DNA of 64,000 nt from Pseudomonadota bacterium. GTDB taxonomy: Bacteria; Pseudomonadota; Alphaproteobacteria; UBA11222. The notes beneath the pieces were generated by a model that saw nothing but the letters and a program-made list of their open reading frames with translations, was not told where the DNA came from and ran no database searches. This document shows positions 4,570 through 55,787 of this stretch, in pieces. The translations under genes and the position numbers were made by a program. Where the stretch lies: assembly GCA_049325255.1 (NCBI GenBank), contig JBMOMW010000056.1, positions 3,137 to 67,136 of the forward strand. The letters are read 5' to 3'. How positions within the stretch are numbered: the first letter of the stretch is position 1; each line of letters begins with the position of its first letter.

Positions 4570-5118
4570 ATGATCGATTATTGCTGCGAGCGGCCCGTGG
4601 ATGCGGGCCAGATTGAACATTTGCTGGACAGGGCCTTTGGGCCCGGGCGCTTTGCCAAGACCGCGTACCGGCTGCGTGAAGGGACGGATTTCATTCCCGA
4701 ACTGTCGCTGGTGGCCTGGGAAGATGGCGTCATGCGCGGCGCGCTGCGCTACTGGCCGGTCGAAATTGGTAATTTGCGCACGCCTGCCCTGTTGCTGGGC
4801 CCGCTTGCCGTGGACCCCGATCAGCGGGGCCGGGGCATTGCCCTGCGCCTGATGGAACTGTCGCTGGCGAAAGCAGCCGGGATAGGCCACAGGATTGTCG
4901 TTCTGGTGGGCGATGAACCCTATTACGCGCGCGTTGGATTTTCTGCGGCAGCCACGCGCGGCTTGCGCATGCCAGGCCCTGTTGACCCCGCCCGGCTGCT
5001 TGCCTTTGAGCTGGTTCCTGGCGCACTGGACGGCGTATCCGGCTTGATCCATAAGGCCAGTGTAGCGGGTGCAGGCGCGCAGTCCGCCCAGATGGCAAGG
5101 CTTGCCGCAGGAAGTTGA
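4570..5118 (+). CDS. GNAT family N-acetyltransferase
   Basis: Acetyl-CoA binding-like segment (LGPLAVDPDQRGRGIALRLM). About 180 aa from the MIDYC start. Confidence 0.6.
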   Translation: MIDYCCERPVDAGQIEHLLDRAFGPGRFAKTAYRLREGTDFIPELSLVAWEDGVMRGALRYWPVEIGNLRTPALLLGPLAVDPDQRGRGIALRLMELSLAKAAGIGHRIVVLVGDEPYYARVGFSAAATRGLRMPGPVDPARLLAFELVPGALDGVSGLIHKASVAGAGAQSAQMARLAAGS

Positions 5119-5145
5119 GGGCAGGCGTTGCGGCTGAACCGCGGC

Positions 5146-5901
5146 TTATATTCCGTGTCCGGAGCGTTTATCCAGTTTCGCATGCAAAATCTGATGCGTC
5201 GTGCATTCTTCCGATATCGAGCATTCACCACAGGCGAAATGCTTGGCCTTGCGCACATTGGTGAACGAAACATGGGCGCCCGTGACAATAACGCCCTGAT
5301 CTTTTATTTTTTGCAATGTGCGCGAGAAAGTTTCCAGCTCCATGCGCAACCGCGACGCGATAAGCGTCTTGGTGTAGGGCAGTTCGAACCCATGCGGATC
5401 AAAATTATACAGTACACATATCTTTTGCAGATAACAGGCCACGATCTGCGCCGCAGACATGGTGGTCAGGTGCTCTGCCTCCATTTCGGCGCCGCGCAGC
5501 CGGTCCGACAGGTCCATCATCAGATGCGCGGCTAAATTGCCAAGATCCTTCAGATGTTCGCGCAGCCATGTGATGGGGATTTCCAGCATGGACACGTCGT
5601 CCACGGCGCGCGCATTTGAGAGATGAATATTCTGACCCGAGACAATTTCGTCTGCGTTGACGCCATCCCCGGCAATCAGAATATTGCTCGTCACCTCATG
5701 TCCGTCCGGCGTTTCGCGGAAGATCTGCACACTGCCCCGGCAGATCACGTAAAAATGCGTGATGGCGTCGCCATGCATGAAAAGAAATCTGCCGCGCCTG
5801 CATTGGCCGATCCGGCTGTTGCGAATCAGGAGCGCGCCTTCTTCCTTGCTCAGATTTGAAAAAAGCGGAAGCGCCTTGAGCGTTTCGACAGCGACGGTCA
5901 T
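5146..5901 (-). CDS. Crp/Fnr family transcriptional regulator with a C-terminal Cys-containing extension
   Basis: N-terminal cNMP-binding domain and C-terminal HTH (YTKTLIASRLRMELETFSRTLQ). ATG at 5901 is preceded by GAGG. An extra C-terminal tail of about 40 aa contains CGECSISEEC. Confidence 0.75.
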   Translation of the reverse strand: MTVAVETLKALPLFSNLSKEEGALLIRNSRIGQCRRGRFLFMHGDAITHFYVICRGSVQIFRETPDGHEVTSNILIAGDGVNADEIVSGQNIHLSNARAVDDVSMLEIPITWLREHLKDLGNLAAHLMMDLSDRLRGAEMEAEHLTTMSAAQIVACYLQKICVLYNFDPHGFELPYTKTLIASRLRMELETFSRTLQKIKDQGVIVTGAHVSFTNVRKAKHFACGECSISEECTTHQILHAKLDKRSGHGI

Positions 5902-6127
5902 GTGCAACCTCAATAAAGGCGCGTCTATTAAATAAAAAGCCTGTTGATTCTAGGTGTTATTAATAAAACGGTCAATGTGCAAATATATTGCACAGGCCCG
6001 TGCACCTGTATCATTTTATGCAGGCGTTGCGGGAAAAACGGCGCCGGGATTGGTTAATTCACAGCACAACCCCCGGCCTGCCCGATCCCGAAGATCAAAC
6101 AGACCGGAATGTGCGGGAAAGCTTGTG

Positions 6128-7756
6128 TTAATTCAGCACAAAGCCTTCATAATTATGGGCCGCGACTTCGTCGCATTTGGCCTTATAGGCCGGGGCGCCA
6201 CCCGCATAGAGCAGGAAGGTGCGCTTCTTCTCCGGCATATTGATGTTGACACCCATGAACCAGCTATCGGTCTTGGTGAAAAGCGAATTCTGCGCGGACT
6301 CGGCCACATGCTCCGTCCATTCATTTTCGGCTTTTACTGTTGGCTCGATGCGCGTCAGTTTTTTGTCGCGCATATATTTCATCAGGTCTGACACCCATTC
6401 CACATTCTGTTCGATGCAGCGCGGGATATTGCAGAAAGTCGCGCCATTATGCGGGCCGACCAGGGTCAGGAAGTTGGGGAAATCATGACCGCCAATCCCC
6501 AGATAGGTGACCGGGCCATCTGCCCATTTGTCCTTGAGCTTCTTGCCGCCCACACCCGTGATATCAATCCGGGTAAATGAGCCGGTGACGGCGTCAAAGC
6601 CGGTGGCGTAAATCAGAATATCCAGCTCATGCTCCTTGTCGCTGGTCTTGACGCCTTTTTCGGTGATGGTCTCGATTGGCGTTTCGCGCAGATCAACCAG
6701 CGTCACATTGTCCTGATTGTAAACCTCGTAATAATTGGTATCCATGGGAACGCGGCGCATGCCAAAGCCATGATTTTTCGGAATCAGCTTTTCGGCAAGC
6801 ACGGGATCCTTGACCCGGCCGCGAATTTTCTTCGCCATGAATTCGGTAAGCAGCGCATTGGCCCTGGGGTCGATCATGGTGTCAACATAATTACCCAGCC
6901 ATTTTTCAAATCCGGGCCTGTTGTACAGATATTCGAAAAACGCCTCGCGTTCCTCGTCGGACACTTCAAAAACCGACTTCATGACGAAATTATGCATGAA
7001 GCCTGCGGTGGATTCCCTGCATTTTTTGAATATTTCCGGATAGTTCTCCTTGATATGGGCCATCTCATCATCCGTGATCGGAGCATTGCGCAACGGCGCG
7101 CAAAATTCCGGCGCAAGCTGGAACACGGTAAGATGCCCGGCAACCTTGGCGGCTTCCTGAATCAGCTGCACGCCGGTCGCGCCCGTGCCGATAACGCCGA
7201 CACGCTTGCCTTTCATGCCGATATCCTTGCCGCCAAAGCCTTTTTCATCTTTTGGCCAGCGCGAGGTGTGGAACGAAACGCCCTTGAATTTATCAACACC
7301 CGGAATTCTCGGCATCTGGGTTGCCGACAGCACGCCAACGGCGGTGATCAGGAACCGGGCGCGGGCGCGTTCGCCTTTTTCGGTTTCAATCTCCCATTCG
7401 TTGGCCTTCTCGTCATAGGTCGCCTTGCTGACGCGCGCGTTGAAGGTGATGTCCTTGCGCAGATCAAATTTCCTCGCGACAAGGTCCAGATATTCCATCG
7501 TGTCCGGCTGCGCCGAGAAATGCTCCTTCCAGTTCCATTCCTGCAACAGTTCCTTCGACCAGGAATAGCCATAGGTATAGCTTTCGGAATCGAAGCGGCA
7601 TCCCGGATAACGGTTCCAGTACCAGGTGCCGCCGACATCGCTGCCGTGCTCGAACACCCGCACATTCATTCCCAGTTCCCGCAGGCGGTAAAGCTGATAC
7701 ATGCCGGCAATGCCGGCCCCGATGATAATAGCGTCATATTGTGGTGTTGTGGACAT
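6128..7756 (-). CDS. Baeyer-Villiger type flavin-containing monooxygenase (cyclohexanone monooxygenase-like)
   Basis: N-terminal FAD motif GAGIAG, a WYWNRYPGCRFD BVMO-like signature and a second dinucleotide motif GTGATG. 542 aa. Confidence 0.8.
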   Translation of the reverse strand: MSTTPQYDAIIIGAGIAGMYQLYRLRELGMNVRVFEHGSDVGGTWYWNRYPGCRFDSESYTYGYSWSKELLQEWNWKEHFSAQPDTMEYLDLVARKFDLRKDITFNARVSKATYDEKANEWEIETEKGERARARFLITAVGVLSATQMPRIPGVDKFKGVSFHTSRWPKDEKGFGGKDIGMKGKRVGVIGTGATGVQLIQEAAKVAGHLTVFQLAPEFCAPLRNAPITDDEMAHIKENYPEIFKKCRESTAGFMHNFVMKSVFEVSDEEREAFFEYLYNRPGFEKWLGNYVDTMIDPRANALLTEFMAKKIRGRVKDPVLAEKLIPKNHGFGMRRVPMDTNYYEVYNQDNVTLVDLRETPIETITEKGVKTSDKEHELDILIYATGFDAVTGSFTRIDITGVGGKKLKDKWADGPVTYLGIGGHDFPNFLTLVGPHNGATFCNIPRCIEQNVEWVSDLMKYMRDKKLTRIEPTVKAENEWTEHVAESAQNSLFTKTDSWFMGVNINMPEKKRTFLLYAGGAPAYKAKCDEVAAHNYEGFVLN

Positions 7757-32549: not shown

Positions 32550-32674
32550 CCTACGCCCTGTGGGCTTCGGGTGGCAAAGCCACCCGGAACCGCATCTTGG
32601 GCGTGGGAGTGTCGCCCGAAGCTCAACTTTAGTGAGCGTAGGGGGACTGGTTCGGTTCAACTAAGGCGTCGCAC

Positions 32675-33286
32675 ATGAATGTTGATCTGCATATTGGCGA
32701 TCTGCCGGATAATATCTCTTTCGGGAATTGCGTCGCCATCGACACCGAAACCATGGGCTTGAACCCCCATCGCGATCGGCTGTGCCTGGTGCAGCTTTCG
32801 GCGGGCGACGGCACGGCGCATCTGGTGCGCTTTAATCTGGGCGATTATAACGCCCCCAATCTGGTGCGCCTGCTGGCCGACAAAAATGTGATCAAACTGT
32901 TTCATTTCGCCCGCTTTGATGTGGCCATGCTGAAACATTATCTGGGCGCGGACACCGCACCCATCTATTGCACCAAGATCGCCTCAAAGCTGGTGCGCAC
33001 CTATACCGACCGCCACGGCCTGCGCGATGTGGTCAAGGATCTGCTGGGCCACGAGGTTTCCAAACAGCAGCAAAGCTCGGACTGGGGCGACCCGAACCTG
33101 AACGAGGCGCAGTTGAAATATGCTGCATCCGATGTGCTGCACCTGCACGCGCTAAAAGCCAGACTGGACGACATGCTGGCCCGCGAAGGCCGCACCGCCA
33201 TGGCCAAGGCCTGCTTCGACTTCCTGCCGGTGCGCGCGGAACTTGATCTGCTCGGCTGGCCGGAAATGGATATTTTTTCACATTAA
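32675..33286 (+). CDS. 3'-5' exonuclease, small RNase D-like (DEDDy family)
   Basis: Exo I motif (AIDTETMGL), Exo II (LFHFARFD) and Exo III (YAASDVLHLH). 203 aa. Its last about 50 nt are duplicated after the R-M islet. Confidence 0.75.
   Translation: MNVDLHIGDLPDNISFGNCVAIDTETMGLNPHRDRLCLVQLSAGDGTAHLVRFNLGDYNAPNLVRLLADKNVIKLFHFARFDVAMLKHYLGADTAPIYCTKIASKLVRTYTDRHGLRDVVKDLLGHEVSKQQQSSDWGDPNLNEAQLKYAASDVLHLHALKARLDDMLAREGRTAMAKACFDFLPVRAELDLLGWPEMDIFSH
33230..33285 (+). repeat. direct repeat DR-L flanking the R-M islet (the 3' end of the exonuclease gene)
   Basis: GTGCGCGCGGAACTTGATCTGCTCGGCTGGCCGGAAATGGATATTTTTTCACATTA. Repeated at 35513-35566 with a 2-nt indel and one substitution. Confidence 0.85.
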
Positions 33287-33306
33287 CGGGATAGGGAAGC
33301 AGGTTT

Positions 33307-33702
33307 TCACTTGAGAAACCTGGATAGTGTATTCCGCAACACATTAGGCTCCCTGGTCTCGCATTCCCAAATCGTCAACACCTCCCAACCCGCCTCCGCC
33401 AGCGCCACGCGCGTTGCGCCATCCCGGGCCCTGTTGCGCGCAATCTTGGCTTGCCAGTAATCACGATTGGTTTTGGGTGTCCGCGCCCCCCGGCGGCAGT
33501 CATGACCATGCCAGAAACAGCCATGCACAAAGATGACCTTGCGCCGGGATGCGAAAACCAGATCGGGTTTCCCCGCAAGGTCTTTACGGTGCAGCCGGTA
33601 GCGGCAGCCCATGGCGAAGGCCATGCGGCGCACGGCCATCTCCGGTGCTGTGTCTTTGCTTTTCACCGCCTGCATCGTCCGGCGCCGCACGAGGTCAGTC
33701 AT
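33307..33702 (-). CDS. vsr: very short patch repair endonuclease
   Basis: Conserved FVHGCFWHGH motif and TIWECE. 131 aa. 4-nt overlap with the upstream endonuclease gene. Confidence 0.85.
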   Translation of the reverse strand: MTDLVRRRTMQAVKSKDTAPEMAVRRMAFAMGCRYRLHRKDLAGKPDLVFASRRKVIFVHGCFWHGHDCRRGARTPKTNRDYWQAKIARNRARDGATRVALAEAGWEVLTIWECETREPNVLRNTLSRFLK

Positions 33703-34268
33703 TCACCTTCTTCGTCTGAGCCGAGTCCAAGCATAACGGAGTGGTATTTCGACAAACGCGCAAAATGCGCATCCATAGCTGCGGCTATCTGGTTGGAATT
33801 TTTAACTACGAGAAAATGACCAACGATTTGTGCGTAGTGGTCCGCCTGACGCGGTAAACGAAGCTCTACGGTCTTTTTTTCAGCAATTTCATCGTCGCTC
33901 ATAACCTGCACTATTTTTGATGGTTCAGGAACGCGGGTTACTGAAACCGGTTGTAATGGAACTGTGCCATTCATCAAACGTGAATGAGGGTTGAAGTGAT
34001 GAAAAAGCATTGCTTCAAGCGGGTTCATTTCAGCCTTATCCATCACTGGATATTCCCAAACAAAAGCAATTTCCCAAACATCTATTTGTCGATTGGCAAT
34101 TACGTCTGAGCGCGCGGAAGTGAGATGACGTTGAACCCGCTGCCTGATTCCGTCACTTGACTGCCCAACATATACGGGGGTGTTGTCCAAATCGCAAAGC
34201 ACATATACGCCGATCTGCGATGTCAGCGTTCTTACCGCGTTCCTCCTAAAGGCAAAACCTTTAGCCAT
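33699..34268 (-). CDS. GIY-YIG nuclease, putative type II restriction endonuclease (Eco29kI-like family)
   Basis: GIY-YIG core (GVYVLCDLDNTPVYVGQS...IRQRVQRH). Sandwiched between the m5C methyltransferase gene and vsr in one operon. Confidence 0.6.
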   Translation of the reverse strand: MAKGFAFRRNAVRTLTSQIGVYVLCDLDNTPVYVGQSSDGIRQRVQRHLTSARSDVIANRQIDVWEIAFVWEYPVMDKAEMNPLEAMLFHHFNPHSRLMNGTVPLQPVSVTRVPEPSKIVQVMSDDEIAEKKTVELRLPRQADHYAQIVGHFLVVKNSNQIAAAMDAHFARLSKYHSVMLGLGSDEEGE

Positions 34269-34269
34269 G

Positions 34270-35418
34270 TCATGCGGCCCGCTGGTTGCCGTTAACCCGA
34301 TATGAGATTATGGGTTCAAATATACGCTCTGTCAGATACCGCACCACGGGAACAGCAACGCCGTCGCCGGTCAGATGATAGGCTTCGTTATAATTCGTGG
34401 GCAGTTTGTATGCCTCCGGCAGCCCCATAAGGCGGGCTGTTTCCCGGCTCGAAATAAGTCTCGATTTTACAGACTTTCCATCAACGACCATAATAAGTTG
34501 GCGGCTGGATCCACCTCCAGGTGTCCGCAAACAGCCCGCCATATTATCAAACCTGACTTCCGCACGCTGCACTTTGTGGCCTTTTTCATCAGGTCGCGTA
34601 CGCTTGTAAATTGTTCCTACAATACGGCCATTTGCCGCTTTAGCTTTCTCCACTTTCGCTATGTTCGCGGCACTCATCATAGCAAGTAACCGCCGTGTCT
34701 CATCTGCGCTATGCCAGTGTGCACCCACAGGCTGATCCTCAATTATATCCTCAAACCGGGTATTGCGTATTGGAGGTGTGGCCATAGCCCACCAAATCCA
34801 ATTTTTCTTGACGAGGGTCGCCAATTCTCCATAAGCCTTTCTAAGCGCATTCGTATGCCATAGGGGAGATGGGCTAAGGCTAATCAGATGGCGCGGCACG
34901 TCAAGATCGCCGCGAACCGCAATGATAAACAGCCGGGGGCGGGATTGGGGAACGAAAAGCGCCGCATCAATAATGACAGCGCCGCAACGATATCCGGCAT
35001 GCGCAAGTGCAGAACAAATGGCGGCGAAATCCTTGCCACCATGCGAGGTGAGCGTTCCACAAACATTCTCGATAGCGATGATTCGGGGCGCGCGGCCCTC
35101 ATTACCCAACACCTGTATCAGTTCCCAGAACGGCCAGAACATTCCCGACCGATCACCCTTCAGCCCTGCGCCGCCGCCAGCAAGCGACAAATCCTGGCAA
35201 GGAAACGACGCCCAGGCCAGATCGCTTTGGCCGGGCAATTCCTGCGCCTTCAGAGCGCGAACATCCGCCGTTTTCAGAATGCCGTCATCGCCCCAGTTCT
35301 GGCGATATATACGGCTTTTCTTATGGTCGAAATCATTGGCGAACAGGCAGTTCCACCCGGGCCCAAGTCCCATTCGCGCCATGCCGCCGCCAGCAAAAAA
35401 TTCATAAAATTTACCCAT
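34270..35418 (-). CDS. DNA (cytosine-5)-methyltransferase
   Basis: Motif I (FAGGGMARMG), motif IV (FPCQDLSLAG), motif VI (ENVCG) and a C-terminal LTGDGVAVPVV. Start chosen at MGKFYEFFAGGG. Confidence 0.85.
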   Translation of the reverse strand: MGKFYEFFAGGGMARMGLGPGWNCLFANDFDHKKSRIYRQNWGDDGILKTADVRALKAQELPGQSDLAWASFPCQDLSLAGGGAGLKGDRSGMFWPFWELIQVLGNEGRAPRIIAIENVCGTLTSHGGKDFAAICSALAHAGYRCGAVIIDAALFVPQSRPRLFIIAVRGDLDVPRHLISLSPSPLWHTNALRKAYGELATLVKKNWIWWAMATPPIRNTRFEDIIEDQPVGAHWHSADETRRLLAMMSAANIAKVEKAKAANGRIVGTIYKRTRPDEKGHKVQRAEVRFDNMAGCLRTPGGGSSRQLIMVVDGKSVKSRLISSRETARLMGLPEAYKLPTNYNEAYHLTGDGVAVPVVRYLTERIFEPIISYRVNGNQRAA

Positions 35419-35512
35419 GGCCGTGATTCTGACATGATGCCTGGTTATCGTCAACATTATGTTCTTTTATTGTTCTAAATTTGACTGGTTTTTATGGTGC
35501 GATACAGAGGGG

Positions 35513-35566
35513 GTGCGCGGAACTTGATCTGCTCGGCTGGCCGGAAATGGATATTTTTTCGCATTA
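35513..35566 (+). repeat. direct repeat DR-R flanking the R-M islet
   Basis: GTGCGCGGAACTTGATCTGCTCGGCTGGCCGGAAATGGATATTTTTTCGCATTA. Would encode the same C-terminal peptide (...ELDLLGWPEMDIFSH) as the exonuclease gene end. Confidence 0.85.
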
Positions 35567-50192: not shown

Positions 50193-50210
50193 AGAGGGCT
50201 TGCAGCCCCC

Positions 50211-51884
50211 TCACATATTCGGATAGTTCGGCCCGCCCGCGCCCTCTGGCACGGTCCAGTTGATATTCTGGGCCGGGTCCTTGATGTCGCAGGTTTTGCA
50301 ATGCACGCAATTCTGCGCATTGATCTGAAAGCGCGGATTGGAACCATCCGCGTCGCGCAGCACCTCATACACGCCGGCCGGGCAATAGCGCTGCGCAGGC
50401 TCATCATATATCGGCAGGTTTTTGGCGATCGGAATTGACGGATCGCGGAGAACCAGATGGCAGGGCTGGTCTTCCTCATGATTGGTGGCCGACAGAAACA
50501 CCGAACTGGGCTTGTCGAACGACAGCACCCCGTCGGGCCTTGGATAAGCGATGGGTTTGAATTTCGCGGCGGGCTTTAGGGCGGCATGATCGGGCTTGCC
50601 ATGTTTCAGCGTGAACGGCAGGCCAATGCGCAGCGCGTTCATCCACAGATCCAGGCCGAAAAAACCCATGCCGGGAATAAGGCCGAAGCGCGACCATAGC
50701 GGCTTGGCGTTGCGCACCTTGTACAGGTCCTTATAGACCCAGCTATCGCGATAGGCCTGTTCATAGGTGGCGGGTTCATCGTGGCTGCGCCCCGTCTGCA
50801 CGGCGGCGAACACGGCTTCGGCGCCCAGCATGCCGGTTTTCATGGCATTGTGGCTGCCCTTGATGCGCGGCACATTGACAAAGCCAGCCGAACAGCCGAT
50901 CAGCGCGCCGCCGGGAAAGGTCAGTTTCGGCACCGATTGCAGGCCGCCCTCGGTAATGGCCCGCGCGCCATAGGCCACGCGCCGCCCGCCCGCCAGCATG
51001 TCCGCGATCACCGGGTGATGTTTGAGGCGCTGCAATTCATCGAACGGCGAGACATAGGGATTGGCGTAATTCAGATGCACGACAAAGCCGATGCTGATCT
51101 GGTTGTTCTCCATGTGATAGAGAAACGTGCCGCCGCCGGTGCTGTTGCCCAGCGGCCAGCCGAAACTGTGCATCACCAGCCCCGGCTTGTGCTTGGCCGG
51201 ATCGATGTCCCAGATTTCCTTGACGCCGATGCCGAATTTCTGAAAATCGCTGTCCTTGTCGAGCTGGTATTTCTGAATGAGTTGCTTGGCCAATGATCCG
51301 CGCACGCCTTCCGCGATCAGCGTATATTTGCCGCGCAGCTCCAGCCCCGGCGTATAGCTGTCCTTGCGCTTGCCGTCCTTAGCGATGCCCATATCGCCGG
51401 TGGCGACGCCGCGCACCGAACCATCGTCAGTGTACAGAACTTCTGCCGCCGCAAAGCCCGGATAAATCTCCGCTCCCAGCGCCTCGGCCTGTTGCCCCAG
51501 CCAGCGGCAGACATTGCCGAGGCTGACGACGTAATTGCCATGATTGTTCAACATTGGCGGCAGCAGAAAATTCGGAATGCGTAAGCTGCCCGCCGGGCCG
51601 AACACGTAAAACCGGTCATCGATCACCGGCGTGTTGAGCGGCGCGCCCATCGCCTTCCAGTCGGGGAACAGCTCATTCATTGCAATCGGGTCCATCACCG
51701 CGCCCGACAGAATATGCGCGCCGATCTCGGAGCCTTTTTCCAGAACGCAGACGGAAATTTCCTGGCCGGTTTCGATGGCGAGCTGGCGCAGGCGGATGGC
51801 GGCGCTGAGCCCGGCGGGCCCGCCGCCGACGATCACCACGTCATATTCCATGAATTCGCGTTCTGTTGCTGCTGTGCCGCTCAT
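50211..51884 (-). CDS. electron-transfer flavoprotein:ubiquinone oxidoreductase
   Basis: N-terminal FAD motif (VVIVGGGPAGLSAA) and C-terminal 4Fe-4S ferredoxin motif (CVHCKTCDIKDP). ATG at 51884 with an AAGGA RBS. Confidence 0.85.
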   Translation of the reverse strand: MSGTAATEREFMEYDVVIVGGGPAGLSAAIRLRQLAIETGQEISVCVLEKGSEIGAHILSGAVMDPIAMNELFPDWKAMGAPLNTPVIDDRFYVFGPAGSLRIPNFLLPPMLNNHGNYVVSLGNVCRWLGQQAEALGAEIYPGFAAAEVLYTDDGSVRGVATGDMGIAKDGKRKDSYTPGLELRGKYTLIAEGVRGSLAKQLIQKYQLDKDSDFQKFGIGVKEIWDIDPAKHKPGLVMHSFGWPLGNSTGGGTFLYHMENNQISIGFVVHLNYANPYVSPFDELQRLKHHPVIADMLAGGRRVAYGARAITEGGLQSVPKLTFPGGALIGCSAGFVNVPRIKGSHNAMKTGMLGAEAVFAAVQTGRSHDEPATYEQAYRDSWVYKDLYKVRNAKPLWSRFGLIPGMGFFGLDLWMNALRIGLPFTLKHGKPDHAALKPAAKFKPIAYPRPDGVLSFDKPSSVFLSATNHEEDQPCHLVLRDPSIPIAKNLPIYDEPAQRYCPAGVYEVLRDADGSNPRFQINAQNCVHCKTCDIKDPAQNINWTVPEGAGGPNYPNM

Positions 51885-52019
51885 GTTTTGTCCTTGTCCT
51901 GCTTCTCGGTCCTTTATATCGTTTCTAGAGTCTAATGGGTCTGAATTGAAGCAATTTCTCCCCCGCCATTTTCCATCACGTATCTTGACTATATTCCCTC
52001 CATGGAATATATCCCCTGT

Positions 52020-52379
52020 ATGGAATGGCAAGTTCTCGCTGACGAGGAGTTTGCGGCATGGTTTGAAAGACAGCCAATTGGCCTTCAGGATGAAATCCTG
52101 ATCAATCGCAATCTTCTCAAACAATACGGCCCGAAGCTTGGCCGGCCGCGTGTTGATACCGTCAAAGGCTCGAAGTTTACCAACATGAAGGAACTTCGTA
52201 TCCAATGGAAAGGCCAGCCGTGGCGCATATTGTTCGCCTTCAATCCCAAGCGCCGCAGCATCTTATTGCCTGGCGGTAATAAGCAGGGCAATAGGCGCTG
52301 GTACGATAAAAACATTCCCATCGCGGATGCGCGATTTGAACAACACCTAAAGAGCATGGAGAAAAACAATGGCCATTGA
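52020..52379 (+). CDS. higB: type II toxin, RelE/ParE superfamily, HigB/Gp49-like
   Basis: About 120 aa. The sequence (WFERQPIGLQDEILINRNLLKQYGPKLGRPRVDTVKGSKFTNMKELRI...RILFAFNPKRRSILLPGGNKQG) matches my recollection of Gp49-like toxins. Lies upstream of, and overlapping, an XRE antitoxin gene. Confidence 0.7.
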   Translation: MEWQVLADEEFAAWFERQPIGLQDEILINRNLLKQYGPKLGRPRVDTVKGSKFTNMKELRIQWKGQPWRILFAFNPKRRSILLPGGNKQGNRRWYDKNIPIADARFEQHLKSMEKNNGH

Positions 52380-52686
52380 TTTTGATAATTTTATCAAGTC
52401 GCTGCCGAAAAAGCGGCAGGCGGAAATTGCAAAACGCAGCGCAGAACTCATTGCGGAGGAAGCAACCCTTCAGGAAATCCGCAAGGCGCAACGCCGCAGC
52501 CAGGCGAAGGTGGCGAAGACATTGCAGATCAATCAGGCGGCGGTGTCCAAAATCGAAAGCCGGACGGACATGTATGTCAGCACACTGCGCTCTTATATCG
52601 AAGCGATGGGCGGCAGCCTGGAGATTATCGCCAAATTCCCCGGCAGCCCGCCGGTGCATATTTCGCAGTTTAAGGAGCTGGAATAG
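52369..52686 (+). CDS. higA: XRE-family HTH antitoxin (HigA-like)
   Basis: 105 aa. HTH (TLQEIRKAQRRSQAKVAKTLQINQAAVSKIESRTDM). 11-nt overlap with the toxin gene. Confidence 0.7.
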   Translation: MAIDFDNFIKSLPKKRQAEIAKRSAELIAEEATLQEIRKAQRRSQAKVAKTLQINQAAVSKIESRTDMYVSTLRSYIEAMGGSLEIIAKFPGSPPVHISQFKELE

Positions 52687-53274
52687 TTACTTGTAAAACT
52701 CCAACTTTGCTCCATGTGAACCCATTCCAAAGGTAAATAAATATTCCTTTGGGGCGGGACGTGCTTCATGGAGTTTCTTTAGTACCCTCTCAACATCCTC
52801 TCGTACGCGTTTGGCAAAGTCAGCGGTTCGAATTTTTGTCTCCCAATCTAAAAGTAGTCGTTCACCAAGATGATCATACAGCTTGTCGTTAATATCACGT
52901 AAGTAGGAATCTTTGATCGTTCTGGATTTGCCATGTGCAATTGAATCTCTGAATGTAAATAACTCAGAGATAGTACTGCGTGGCCTTTTACCTTGTGGAA
53001 AATCCACTTTCAACTCTTCGCAAAGCAAAGCAAATTTTGCCAGGGGCGGAAGCCTTTCTATGTCATTCCAGCAAGAAAAAATCTTCTCTCCGGTATGGTT
53101 CAGATACGCCTCGAAAGTAAAAGCAGTTAATATTACACTCGAAAGAAACTGCCATGACGATGCTTCGGATTCGCATAATCCTTTTTCGAGGACACAAGAT
53201 GACGCATGCCAAAGTTCAGAGTAGGTGTGAACCGTTCGCTCTTTTGTTACCGAGGCTTTTTTGGGTTTAGTCAT
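52687..53274 (-). CDS. hypothetical protein (about 195 aa) in a low-GC islet
   Basis: No recognisable motif. By eye, GC roughly 40-45% against about 62% in the flanks. Convergent with and abutting higA. Adjacent to tRNA-Thr. Confidence 0.45.
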   Translation of the reverse strand: MTKPKKASVTKERTVHTYSELWHASSCVLEKGLCESEASSWQFLSSVILTAFTFEAYLNHTGEKIFSCWNDIERLPPLAKFALLCEELKVDFPQGKRPRSTISELFTFRDSIAHGKSRTIKDSYLRDINDKLYDHLGERLLLDWETKIRTADFAKRVREDVERVLKKLHEARPAPKEYLFTFGMGSHGAKLEFYK

Positions 53275-53296
53275 ATCTTCGAAAACCCGCAGAAAA

Positions 53297-53373
53297 TGGT
53301 GCCGCCTGCGTGACTCGAACACGCGACCCCCGCATTACGAATGCGATGCTCTACCAGCTGAGCTAAGGCGGCC
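53297..53373 (-). tRNA. tRNA-Thr (anticodon CGU), CCA encoded
   Basis: The reverse complement reads GGCCGCCTTAGCTCAGCTGGTAGAGCATCGCATTCGTAATGCGGGGGTCGCGTGTTCGAGTCACGCAGGCGGCACCA. Confidence 0.85.
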
Positions 53374-53398
53374 TGATTGGTTCCGTTAACGTGCTCTA

Positions 53399-54727
53399 TC
53401 AAACCGGAGCGGCATGCGCAAGCAATCCCGTATCCCGGGAAATTTCTCCCGATGGCGTTTTCCCCGTGGCGAGCCATTTTATGCTGTCAAATTCGCCACA
53501 GGACGGGCATTGCATGCGCCATGCCGGAGCCTGTTTGCCGCAGGCCTGACACTGCCAGGCGGGATCGGGCGTGGCCAGCGGTGCGCGGGCCAGCCACTTT
53601 TGGGCTTCGGGTGCGCCCATGCCTTGCGTCTGGGCCAGTTGCGCCATCAGTGTGCAGACACGCTGACTGGCGTCTGAACCGGACAGCGGGTTCAGCAATT
53701 CACGCGCGCGCGCGGTTTCGCCTGCCGCCAGGGCGGCCTCGGCCCCCAGCAACCGGCTTTCTGTATGTTCAGGATTTGCCGCAATCAGCCGGCGCATCCG
53801 CACCACCCGTTGGGCGGGTGTTTCAGTGGGGATCAGCGCGGCATAGGCCACCGCCAGATCAGGATGCGGGGCCTGCGCCCAGGCCTTTTCCAGCAATCGC
53901 GCCGCCTTGTCCGGCTTGCCGGACTGGGCCAGCAACTTTGCGGCCAGAATGGCGGCGGGGGTCAGATCGGGCGCGCCTTTCAGGGCGGTCTGTGCGGATG
54001 CCAGGGCCTGCATGTCGGCCCCCTGTTCCAGCGCCTGACAGGCTTCGGCATAGGCCAGAAGGGCCTGACGGCGGGTGCGTTCGGGCCTGGTGATCAGTTT
54101 GGTCTGAACGGCGCGGCCAAGGGTTTCGCGCGCCTGCGGCCAGGCCCCGGCGGCGCATTCAATTTCGAATTTATGGCGGATCAGCCACGGACTTTTGGGT
54201 TGCAGTTTCATGGCCCGGTCCACCAGCCGTCCGGCATAATCCCTGTCGCCCTGCCGCATGGCTTGGGCCAGCAGGCCGCGCAGGCCCAGAAATTCGGTTT
54301 CGGGCGCCGCCAGCATGGATTGAAAATAGCCCCGCGCCGCCGGTTCATCGCCGCGCAGTTCTGCGGCCTGGGCCTGCATCAATAACGAAAGCGGCGCGCC
54401 ATGCAGCAGCCGGGCGGCGCGCGCGGCATAGCGTTTGGCGTCATTCGCATTGCCCGCCGCAATCGCCGTCATGCCACGGGTCAGCGCGTCAATGCCGCTA
54501 TTCTGGCGCGTGAGTTGCCCATGCGCCCCGCGCCAGCGGTCATAAACCCAGAATGGCAGGCGCAGCAGCGCATATAACAAAATTCCAATCGTCAGCAGCA
54601 GCGCAATGCTGCTTTCAATGCGATAGCCCTGCCAGTCCAGCTCCAGCCGGCCGGGATTATCCGCAAGCCACGCAACGGCGGCGGCAATCACCACCAGAAG
54701 GATAAACGGCCGCAGCAGCCGGATCAT
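53399..54727 (-). CDS. hemY: heme biosynthesis protein HemY (TPR membrane protein with C-terminal zinc ribbon)
   Basis: N-terminal membrane spans, TPR repeats and a C-terminal CQACG...CPSCG. Position downstream of hemC-hemD-hemX. Start at 54727 avoids overlap with the upstream gene. Confidence 0.75.
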   Translation of the reverse strand: MIRLLRPFILLVVIAAAVAWLADNPGRLELDWQGYRIESSIALLLTIGILLYALLRLPFWVYDRWRGAHGQLTRQNSGIDALTRGMTAIAAGNANDAKRYAARAARLLHGAPLSLLMQAQAAELRGDEPAARGYFQSMLAAPETEFLGLRGLLAQAMRQGDRDYAGRLVDRAMKLQPKSPWLIRHKFEIECAAGAWPQARETLGRAVQTKLITRPERTRRQALLAYAEACQALEQGADMQALASAQTALKGAPDLTPAAILAAKLLAQSGKPDKAARLLEKAWAQAPHPDLAVAYAALIPTETPAQRVVRMRRLIAANPEHTESRLLGAEAALAAGETARARELLNPLSGSDASQRVCTLMAQLAQTQGMGAPEAQKWLARAPLATPDPAWQCQACGKQAPAWRMQCPSCGEFDSIKWLATGKTPSGEISRDTGLLAHAAPV

Positions 54728-54734
54728 CGGTGAT

Positions 54735-55787
54735 CTATTCTCCCGCATTTTCAACAGGCGTCACAGGCGTGGAAGTTGCCGCTTCATTCAGCCGCTGGGT
54801 TAATGTTGCGCTCAGTTGCGCCAGTGCCTGCTCCGCCGCCAGCCGCGCGCGGGCATCGCTCAGCCAGGGCGCCGCCGCCTTTGCTGCTGCATCCTCCAAT
54901 TCCCCCAGTTCTTTCACAGCCGCGTCCAGATCGCCTTCTTCAAGACGCATCTGCGCGCGGGCCACACGCGATGGGGCGTCCAGGCCTTCGCGCTCGCCCA
55001 GCGGGCGGATCATGACCAATGACATGACAAGGGCATAGATGCGGCCAGCCCAGCCCGGCGCAACATCTGATGCGGCATCGGCGCGCACAATGGCCGCCGC
55101 TGCCGTATTAAAGCGCGCCAGCAGAATGGCGCGTGCCGGAATACCGGTTGTGGCGCGGGTGCGTAATTGCGCAATCGACGGATCGGGTTGGGCGGCATCC
55201 AGTAATTTGTCCAGACTTTCCAGTTCCACCGCAAACGGCCCTGAACCATTTAGCGCGCGTTCCAGTTCGCGCAGGCCCAGCGCATAGGAAATGCGTTTTG
55301 CGTCGCCGCCCAATGGCTGCGCCGCCTGAATGGCTTCCAGCGCGGCAAGGCGCGCATTTAATGCGGTCATGGCGGTGTGGATCGCATCCAGGCTGCCGGA
55401 TATTGTGCGCACCACGCCATCCAGTTGCGATATGGCGCCAGCATCAGCAGGGTTTGCGGGAACCGCTGCTGCGAATTTAAGCTGTTCGAATTCCGTTTCC
55501 AGCGCTGCCAGCCGTGTTGTCACCTGCGCCAGTGCATTGGCAACGGGTACAGTGATCTCACGTTCCATGGTCGCTGTAACCGCAGCTTGCGGCCCCGCAG
55601 GCAGGGGCAACGCCGCCGATTGCGGCGGCAGATCCAATATGGGTTGGGAAATTTGCCGCAAGGACCACCAGCCCCACGCGCCAGCCAGTACAATGCCGGC
55701 GGCAAGCAGGCCAAGCGCGATCCGCCGCAATGATGCGCGCCAGCCAGTTGACGGATGTGCTTCTAGTTTTTCCAATGCTTCCTGCAT
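54735..55787 (-). CDS. HemX-like / COG4223 mitofilin-family membrane protein
   Basis: One membrane span followed by a long Ala-rich coiled coil. Located between hemD and hemY. Confidence 0.5.
   Translation of the reverse strand: MQEALEKLEAHPSTGWRASLRRIALGLLAAGIVLAGAWGWWSLRQISQPILDLPPQSAALPLPAGPQAAVTATMEREITVPVANALAQVTTRLAALETEFEQLKFAAAVPANPADAGAISQLDGVVRTISGSLDAIHTAMTALNARLAALEAIQAAQPLGGDAKRISYALGLRELERALNGSGPFAVELESLDKLLDAAQPDPSIAQLRTRATTGIPARAILLARFNTAAAAIVRADAASDVAPGWAGRIYALVMSLVMIRPLGEREGLDAPSRVARAQMRLEEGDLDAAVKELGELEDAAAKAAAPWLSDARARLAAEQALAQLSATLTQRLNEAATSTPVTPVENAGE

Follow-up and report, generated by a model that had tools for sequence, protein, structure and literature searches.

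The stretch of 64,000 nt analysed here (contig JBMOMW010000056.1 of assembly GCA_049325255.1, from a bacterium of the Pseudomonadota; hereafter the window) carries a low-GC islet between the gene for ETF-ubiquinone oxidoreductase (ETF-QO) and a tRNA-Thr(CGT) gene, and this islet encodes a toxin-antitoxin pair and an unannotated protein of 195 aa. Taken as a whole, it is probably to be explained as a composite of a HigB/HigA toxin-antitoxin operon (HigBA) and a solo HEPN gene derived from an integron cassette, so that the interval 51885-53296 would hold two unrelated selfish or defence-type modules, abutting stop to stop. Central to this explanation is the 195-aa protein, which very probably is a divergent HEPN domain and belongs to a large family that, judging from its genes and their flanks, is usually mobile as an integron cassette of one gene. 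The proteins encoded by integron cassettes are mostly of unknown function, and recent work indicates that many cassettes are compact single-gene anti-phage systems. What the analysis contributes is the assignment of a large cassette family, with no model in Pfam, NCBIfam or PADLOC, to the HEPN ribonuclease (RNase) superfamily.

The 195-aa protein and its family

The 195-aa protein has 373 full-length homologs at 53-76% identity, and an exhaustive profile search extended the family to 1,629 clusters at 50% identity, whose members are all annotated as 'hypothetical' and carry no Pfam domain. The gene occurs in Alpha-, Beta-, Gamma- and Deltaproteobacteria, Nitrospirota, Campylobacterales, Acidobacteriota, Planctomycetota and Verrucomicrobiota; phage records gave no family match, and plasmid records gave a single distant one. 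Ratios of nonsynonymous to synonymous divergence of 0.10 (window versus L001; L001, L047, L058 and similar labels denote comparison loci or genomes) and 0.30 (window versus L047) indicate that the gene is under purifying selection. An alternative GTG start at 53322 would extend the open reading frame (ORF) into tRNA-Thr, and the same Met serves as the start in all homologs of an alignment of 32 close relatives. An overlapping antisense ORF of 103 aa, present in the window and in L047, was considered as a second gene and rejected, its frame and length not being kept across the family.

Proteins of the HEPN superfamily share a conserved Rx4-6H motif in which a polar N, D or H directly follows the arginine. 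In their alpha-helical bundle the motif falls where core helix 3 ends and the loop to helix 4 begins, and helix 2 carries a conserved acidic residue, typically as Ex3[KR] (PMC3710099). We examined the 195-aa family against this pattern in two alignments, the first comprising the 32 close homologs and the second 50 divergent representatives at 27-53% identity. R109, A113, H114 and G115 are invariant among the close homologs, and N110 is found in at least 90% of them; the window copy has D at this position and reads FRDSIAHG, in which RDSIAH is the Rx4H motif. The preliminary description of this DNA had seen no recognisable motif in the protein, a statement that this stretch of residues contradicts. 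In the divergent alignment, the only invariant residues are E55, N59, G62, R109 and H114.

The positions of these residues in a structural model agree with the superfamily pattern. The AlphaFold (AF2) model of the protein (predicted local distance difference test 92.3, predicted template-modelling score 0.84) consists of a beta-strand at 6-13, helices at 17-34, 39-65, 77-88, 99-113, 130-137 and 152-171, and a second beta-strand at 185-192. R109 lies in the last turn of helix 99-113, whose final residue is A113, and the loop that follows begins with H114; E55 lies in the second helix, 39-65. The family thus has the Rx4H motif, the polar N or D after the arginine and the placement of the motif at the end of helix 3.

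Profile and structure searches point weakly in the same direction. When the family was scanned against Pfam member by member, HEPN_RiboL-PSP matched 20 of the 50 divergent members (best E 6e-5) and HEPN_MAE_28990 matched 19, with single matches to the Swt1, Cthe2314 and pEK499_p136 HEPN families and one match to Apea in the close-homolog set. Each non-HEPN Pfam family was matched by at most two of the 50 divergent members; among the close homologs the non-HEPN maximum was UCR_UQCRX_QCR9, with weak matches from 5 of 32. The highest-probability Foldseek matches in the PDB are HepT HEPN toxins (probability 0.87-0.90; template-modelling score, TM, 0.54-0.60 target-normalised). Within the superfamily, the 195-aa family appears nearest to the RiboL-PSP-HEPN and MAE_28990 families.

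The family in integron cassettes and beside tRNA-Thr

Many copies of the family gene carry the signature of an integron cassette. GTTAGGG or a close variant stands 10-20 nt before the ATG, and the stop codon lies inside CCCTAAC, which is followed by an imperfect palindrome ending in GTTAGGC. In many genomes the whole cassette unit consists of a core-site remnant (TTAGGG), a leader of 10-20 nt, the ORF, and an attC site with the stop codon in its R'' box, and the upstream core remnant complements the cassette's own inverse core, as with GTTAGGG and CCCTAAC. In 12 of 37 loci a GTTRRR stands no more than 35 nt upstream of the start, where 5.7% would be expected (P about 6e-7).

The attC sites were examined with a covariance model built from an alignment of 16 sequences from six loci. 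As RNAalifold gave no structure, a manually drawn arrangement of R boxes and L boxes was checked by counting pairs: pairing holds in 94% of cells, four of the six L-box pairs show compensatory changes, and none of 500 shuffles reaches the observed values. With this model the gene is seen to have attC on either side in L005, L006, L008, L021 and L027, on one side in L010, L015, L018 and L042, and weakly in L012. In total, attC directly adjoins the gene in at least 11 loci. Cassette arrays that include the family gene were found in L005, L006 (19 attC-like repeats, spaced 330-970 bp apart), L021 (at least 19 attC) and L027, and in one of these loci, L021, an integron integrase (TIGR02249, 446 bits versus a cut-off of 265) adjoins the array and diverges from it. 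L006 (1-9983) and L021 (5180-16585) are long chromosomal integron arrays whose small ORFs nearly all lack a Pfam domain; one L006 cassette encodes a TIR/ThsB-like protein. A further locus, L045, holds a lone cassette at 6001-6661 (ORF plus attC at 6589-6661, E 0.03) between FecCD permease and ABC ATPase genes, where it seems to have inserted outside any integron and inside an operon.

The neighbourhoods of the family gene are otherwise idiosyncratic. An all-against-all BLAST of ORFs within 4 kb on each side revealed no neighbour common to more than 2 of 40 loci, and tblastn of the family loci with HigB, HigA, BrnT, BrnA, the TIR protein, integrase, transposase and methylase found nothing recurrent. 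A PADLOC scan of ten neighbours returned one TIR protein only, and a Pfam scan of six further neighbours returned nothing. The preliminary description had taken the islet for a typical defence-islet context, a view that does not extend to the homologs, which sit in integron cassette arrays or in contexts of their own and not in classic defence islands. In 40 of 41 loci the GC content of the family gene is below that of its flanks, and the gene has about 40-42% GC in hosts with 52-69% GC.

The copy in the window belongs to a small group that lies beside tRNA-Thr instead. Linkage to a tRNA is seen in only three of about 45 family loci (the window, L047/L048 and L001), and in all three the tRNA sequence is followed by CCA-TTTTCTGCGG. 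In L047/L048, a more distant relative with about 69% GC, the order hemX, hemY, tRNA-Thr, 195-aa gene is present without HigBA; the hemY products are 58% identical in aa and the 195-aa gene products 72% identical (gene GC about 41%), and homology to the window stops at the stop codon of the gene. In L001, whose context is unrelated, a copy with 76% identity directly follows a 23-nt tRNA-Thr 3' fragment. This locus (4851-6574) has a tRNA-Thr 5' fragment at 4851-4903, an intact gene at 5038-5114, the 23-nt 3' fragment at 5266-5288, and, beyond the HEPN gene and one further ORF, a 52-nt tRNA-Thr 3' half at 6523-6574, which suggests repeated integration events at tRNA-Thr.

Searched with the covariance model, the window shows no attC (the best candidate over 51000-54000, with the filters switched off, scored 5.9 bits, E 1.3), and none was found beside the L001 and L047 copies. 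The window copy is probably a stranded derivative of a cassette, within a subclade that has lost its attC and in which the gene stands 22 nt downstream of tRNA-Thr(CGT), on the strand of the tRNA. Elsewhere in the window, at 32621-32687, a simple hairpin-based attC detector gave its sole match, about 70 nt downstream of tRNA-Leu; the covariance model gave no confirmation, and the hairpin is probably of the usual terminator-like kind.

Composition and acquisition of the islet

The genes of the islet and its flanks are listed in the table; the HigB/HigA pair, the tRNA-Thr and the convergent 195-aa ORF are all where the preliminary description had placed them. On the minus strand the order is hemX-like gene, hemY-like gene, tRNA-Thr(CGT), 195-aa ORF, and higA converges on the 195-aa ORF with stop codons that touch, 0 nt apart (52686 and 52687).

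Table. Features of the islet and its immediate flanks (window coordinates)
Feature	Position	Strand	Basis or remark
ETF-ubiquinone oxidoreductase (ETF-QO) gene	50211-51884	-	starts at 51884; context, not cargo; recombinant allele
AT-rich intergenic region, 43% GC	51885-52019	.	between ETF-QO start and higB
Gp49/HigB-type toxin (RelE/ParE superfamily), 119 aa	52020-52379	+	Pfam Gp49, PHROG
XRE/HTH_37 antitoxin, HigA-type, 105 aa	52369-52686	+	Pfam HTH_37
195-aa ORF, predicted solo HEPN-domain protein	52687-53274	-	ATG at 53274; attC-less copy
R109-D-S-I-A-H114 codons (Rx4H motif)	52933-52950	-	read from sequence; E55 codon at 53110-53112
22-nt leader TTTTCTGCGGGTTTTCGAAGAT	53275-53296	-	between tRNA CCA end and ATG of the 195-aa ORF
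tRNA-Thr(CGT)	53297-53372	-	ARAGORN; 3' end is the exact islet boundary
hemY-like gene	53399-54754	-	hemX-like gene precedes on the minus strand

The pair beside the 195-aa gene is an ordinary type II HigB(Gp49)/HigA(XRE) toxin-antitoxin operon, as had been proposed: both domains score above their curated Pfam thresholds (Gp49, a HigB-like toxin, 71.1 bits versus a cut-off of 23.9, E=8e-20; HTH_37, the antitoxin, 30.2 bits versus 27, E=4e-7), higB matches a PHROG toxin (1.9e-17), an identical 119-aa protein is named RelE/ParE family toxin by NCBI, and the genes stand in toxin-first order with an overlap of 11 nt. A near-perfect palindrome, AAAAACAATGGCCATTGATTTT, at 52362-52383 lies across the overlap between the end of higB and the start of higA; it could serve regulation or translational coupling, or be incidental.

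The two modules are separate. In L058/L059 an ETF-QO gene (90.5% aa identity) is followed by the same AT-rich intergenic region, HigB (78%) and HigA (86%), and window positions 51207-52686 are collinear with L058 at 82% nt identity, with homology stopping exactly at the higA stop codon; past higA, L058 continues with an aldo-keto reductase gene, and neither a tRNA nor the 195-aa gene is present. Conservation in L058 assigns the AT-rich region 51885-52019 to the HigBA module, whose promoter and operator presumably lie there; a consensus promoter scan of the islet, this region included, found no sites. Each module thus occurs alone, HigBA in L058 and the 195-aa gene in L047/L048 and L001, so that they are independent modules, HigBA going with ETF-QO and the 195-aa gene with the tRNA. 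The earlier treatment of the islet as one unit is not upheld. The idea that both modules are former cassettes was rejected for HigBA, since no attC remnant was found near HigBA in L058.

Base composition sets the 195-aa ORF apart. Its GC content had been estimated by eye at 40-45%, and precise computation gives 42.0%, the minimum of all segments of its length (588 nt) in the 64 kb and about 4.2 standard deviations under their mean (58.4%, standard deviation 3.9); 0.05% of segments are that low. For comparison, the GC content is 49.7% in higB, 53.8% in higA, 46.7% in the whole islet, 60.4% in ETF-QO, 64.7% in the hemY-like gene and 58.4% in the whole window.

Sister genomes, obtained from a metagenome scan with the hemY-like protein and compared with the window by blastn, allow the insertion to be delimited. 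L049 and L050, whose flanks are 95-96% identical in nt, have hemY, tRNA-Thr, about 190 or about 80 nt, and ETF-QO, with neither module present, and the site is likewise empty of both in the more distant L053 and L054. Because homology of the window to the sisters breaks at 53297/53292 (the tRNA 3' end) and restarts at 51865-51897 (the ETF-QO start), we define the islet as 51885-53296, or 1,412 bp. The comparison confirms the islet as a strain-specific insertion. In a further sister genome, L051 (7338-7592), the hemY flanks are 95% identical, but tRNA-Thr breaks off after 49 nt. A second, different tRNA-Thr stands 130 nt further on, and unrelated housekeeping genes take the place of ETF-QO; either the same tRNA was the site of a rearrangement or the assembly is chimeric here.

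The insertion is accompanied by a mosaic pattern of divergence. The ETF-QO tract 50205-51865 is 86% identical in nt to L049, versus 95.6-96.0% on both flanks, its synonymous divergence from the sister is 0.61 versus 0.157 for hemY, and the ETF-QO protein is nearer to the more distant L053 lineage (96% aa identity). The ETF-QO gene next to the islet is a foreign allele. No integrase was found in the window, and no att-type repeat of the tRNA-Thr 3' end. This combination speaks for homologous recombination as the means of import, and against a site-specific insertion in this strain; most simply, the mosaic reads as a tract of about 3 kb, comprising ETF-QO and the islet, that came from a relative in which it was already present. 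The preliminary description had proposed recent horizontal acquisition at a tRNA locus; acquisition as such is borne out by the empty sister sites and the low GC content, but site-specific integration at the tRNA in this strain is not.

A second low-GC islet, with a minimum of 44% GC, lies at window positions 33229-35566, about 0.8 kb from tRNA-Leu(CAG). Its genes, all on the minus strand, make up a compact restriction-modification unit of type II, with a Vsr endonuclease at 33307-33702, a GIY-YIG nuclease at 33699-34268 and a C5 cytosine DNA methylase at 34270-35457. Direct repeats of 57 nt, 95% identical to each other, stand on either side of the unit at 33229-33285 and 35510-35566; they repeat the 3' end of the 203-aa exonuclease-like ORF that precedes it.

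Possible function, alternatives and known systems

By analogy with characterised HEPN proteins, the 195-aa protein would be a metal-independent endoribonuclease, most likely a dimer, with the RNase chemistry typical of the superfamily. When expressed or triggered, it would arrest growth by cutting cellular or phage RNA. In integrons, the gene may be kept silent by its distance from the Pc promoter. Because the window copy lies 22 nt downstream of tRNA-Thr(CGT) on the same strand, its expression, if any, would probably depend on transcription that begins in the tRNA/hemY unit and reads through; between tRNA-Thr and the ORF, neither a promoter nor a terminator consensus was found. It is plausible that the protein acts in defence or growth arrest. 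Since the protein is a predicted solo RNase of HEPN type, the suggestion in the preliminary description of an Abi-like single-gene effector is reasonable. No Abi family (Abi_2, Abi_C) is among the Pfam matches of the family; the companion suggestion of an immunity protein found no support.

It is tempting to go further and to imagine a new and widespread RNase, stockpiled by integrons, that acts as a single protein against phage or in growth arrest, one subclade of which escaped and became hard-wired behind tRNA-Thr(CGT). Perhaps the tRNA promoter there replaces Pc and couples the dosage of the toxin to tRNA transcription, and perhaps the gene spreads with a tRNA 3' fragment as a portable stretch of homology or att site. 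We regard this full scenario as rather unlikely.

Phage defence is also not the only role open to a cassette-borne HEPN protein. The cassette could be a plain addiction or selfish element, its leaky RNase stabilising arrays or islets with no contribution to defence. Toxin modules are known to stabilise integron arrays (bioRxiv 10.1101/2024.07.02.601686), and the gene is widespread, low in GC and adjacent to other addiction modules. However, a lone toxin without an antidote gene cannot give classical post-segregational killing, and neither a partner nor a conserved antisense ORF accompanies this gene. In addition, the one tested HEPN-like single-gene cassette, Esos, protected against phage, although Esos is likened to the 195-aa family by description only. 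On balance we consider a purely selfish role unlikely.

Several results weigh against the explanation we favour. The query itself scores 16.5 bits against PF18737 (cut-off 26.8) and 13.6 bits against PF18735 (cut-off 28.4), and no Pfam HEPN match of the query or of any family member reaches its gathering score. The Foldseek matches in the PDB have E-values of at least 0.4 and query-normalised TM of 0.41-0.43; PDB sequence searches with both family profiles returned only a chance-level match to a designed protein (E 7.6); and PADLOC (PADLOC-DB v2) has no matching model for the protein at E up to 1. The helix-2 motif is E-A-Y-L-N, that is Ex3N, where Ex3[KR] is usual. Outside the domain itself, the consensus scan found no promoter for the 195-aa ORF, the window copy has neither attC nor integrase nor att repeat, and the neighbourhoods of the family are not demonstrably enriched for known defence genes. 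NCBIfam gave nothing for the protein, PHROGs gave one chance-level match (E 0.33), and Foldseek against viral structures gave nothing meaningful.

As none of the HEPN matches is statistically significant, the protein could be catalytically unrelated, a helical regulator, immunity or anti-defence factor, or nucleotide binder whose resemblance to HEPN is superficial. The weak Foldseek results, in which the vinculin tail and designed helical bundles are similar by E-value, would fit such a protein, as would the lack of any HEPN match at curated threshold, and some HEPN domains are themselves non-catalytic binders (PMC3710099). We nevertheless judge this distinctly improbable, given that the only residues invariant across the 50 divergent members are the HEPN catalytic set at the expected structural positions, and that the weak Pfam matches gather on six HEPN families and almost nothing else. 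These five residues are the ones to mutate, and the family offers a cheap and well-defined candidate for defence screens.

A functional tie between the two modules is very improbable. The 195-aa protein could in principle be a toxin or third component of one system with HigBA, for example with HigA neutralising or repressing it, as the convergent genes are juxtaposed without a spacer and a BrnT/BrnA pair stands directly upstream of the homolog in L004. Against this, tblastn detected HigB/HigA in none of the other family loci, HigBA lacks the HEPN gene in L058/L059, the HEPN gene lacks HigBA in L047, L001 and all cassette loci, and cassettes have physical room for one ORF only. Scarcely credible, finally, is a vertically inherited housekeeping or RNA-processing factor tied to tRNA-Thr, for instance in its maturation or quality control: the hemX-hemY-tRNA-Thr-gene order recurs in the related L047 and the gene is co-oriented with the tRNA 22 nt away, but this reading is largely refuted by the empty sites of the closest sister genomes, and it also runs counter to the rarity of the tRNA link, the low GC of the gene relative to its hosts, the integron-cassette nature of most copies, and a synonymous divergence between window and L047 of 0.56, half of the 1.15 seen in the adjacent hemY.

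A composite of HigBA and a cassette-derived HEPN gene can be set beside several known systems. RiboL-PSP-HEPN (PF18735) and MAE_28990 (PF18737) are distantly allied to AbiD/AbiF (Anantharaman et al. 2013, PMC3710099). With these the 195-aa family shares an Rx4H motif with N or D after the arginine at the end of core helix 3, an acidic helix-2 residue, an all-alpha core, and residence on mobile, conflict-type elements. It differs in its Ex3N motif, its scores below gathering thresholds, and its additional N- and C-terminal beta-strands and helical inserts; moreover, the 195-aa protein is not fused to L-PSP and does not lie in the ParB/methylase operons described for those families. The HepT toxins of HepT/MntA type VII systems (PDB 7bxo, 6m6w, 7ae6) give the best Foldseek probability and are small Rx4H HEPN RNase toxins, whereas the 195-aa protein has no MNT partner or conserved neighbour and is 60 residues longer, and the E-values are not significant. 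The neighbouring HigB/HigA pair (Gp49/PF05973 plus XRE helix-turn-helix) is typical of its type II class, has nothing unusual about it and is unrelated to the 195-aa gene.

As regards its position in the genome, the window copy resembles tRNA-targeted islands in its insertion exactly at the tRNA 3' end and in the empty site of its relatives, and the HEPN block of L001 is bracketed by tRNA-Thr 3' fragments; the distal repeat and the integrase of such islands were not found. Cassette insertion outside integrons, at non-classical attG sites, is on record (Loot et al. 2024, as cited in PMC12614218), and the lone L045 cassette with attC between ABC-transporter genes is of this kind in appearance. 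Neither mechanism can be demonstrated for the window copy, because integrase, distal repeat and attC are lacking there. The window copy offers a natural example of a cassette gene that survives outside an integron, beside a tRNA.

The closest parallels by description are among cassette proteins. Cassette HEPN proteins have been described since 2013, including the 'integron cassette HEPN' family with PDB entry 3jrt (PMC3710099), and integron cassettes have been reported as reservoirs of defence functions since 2024 (bioRxiv 10.1101/2024.07.02.601686). In Vibrio cholerae, integron cassettes include single-gene anti-phage systems, among them Esos, whose only domain is HEPN-like and for which phage protection of the growth-arrest or cell-death type was shown experimentally, and among the systems known from cassettes the most frequent are toxin-antitoxin modules (bioRxiv 10.1101/2024.07.02.601686). 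The 195-aa family shares with the 3jrt family and Esos the small single-ORF cassette, the HEPN-like domain as sole domain and the residence in chromosomal integron arrays. The likeness is one of description: no related sequence was found in the PDB, the 50 Foldseek matches listed do not include 3jrt, and the window copy is no longer a cassette, having no attC. The HigBA operon and the inference of horizontal transfer are routine; the interest lies in the placing of a large unnamed family among the cassette-borne HEPN proteins, a known kind.

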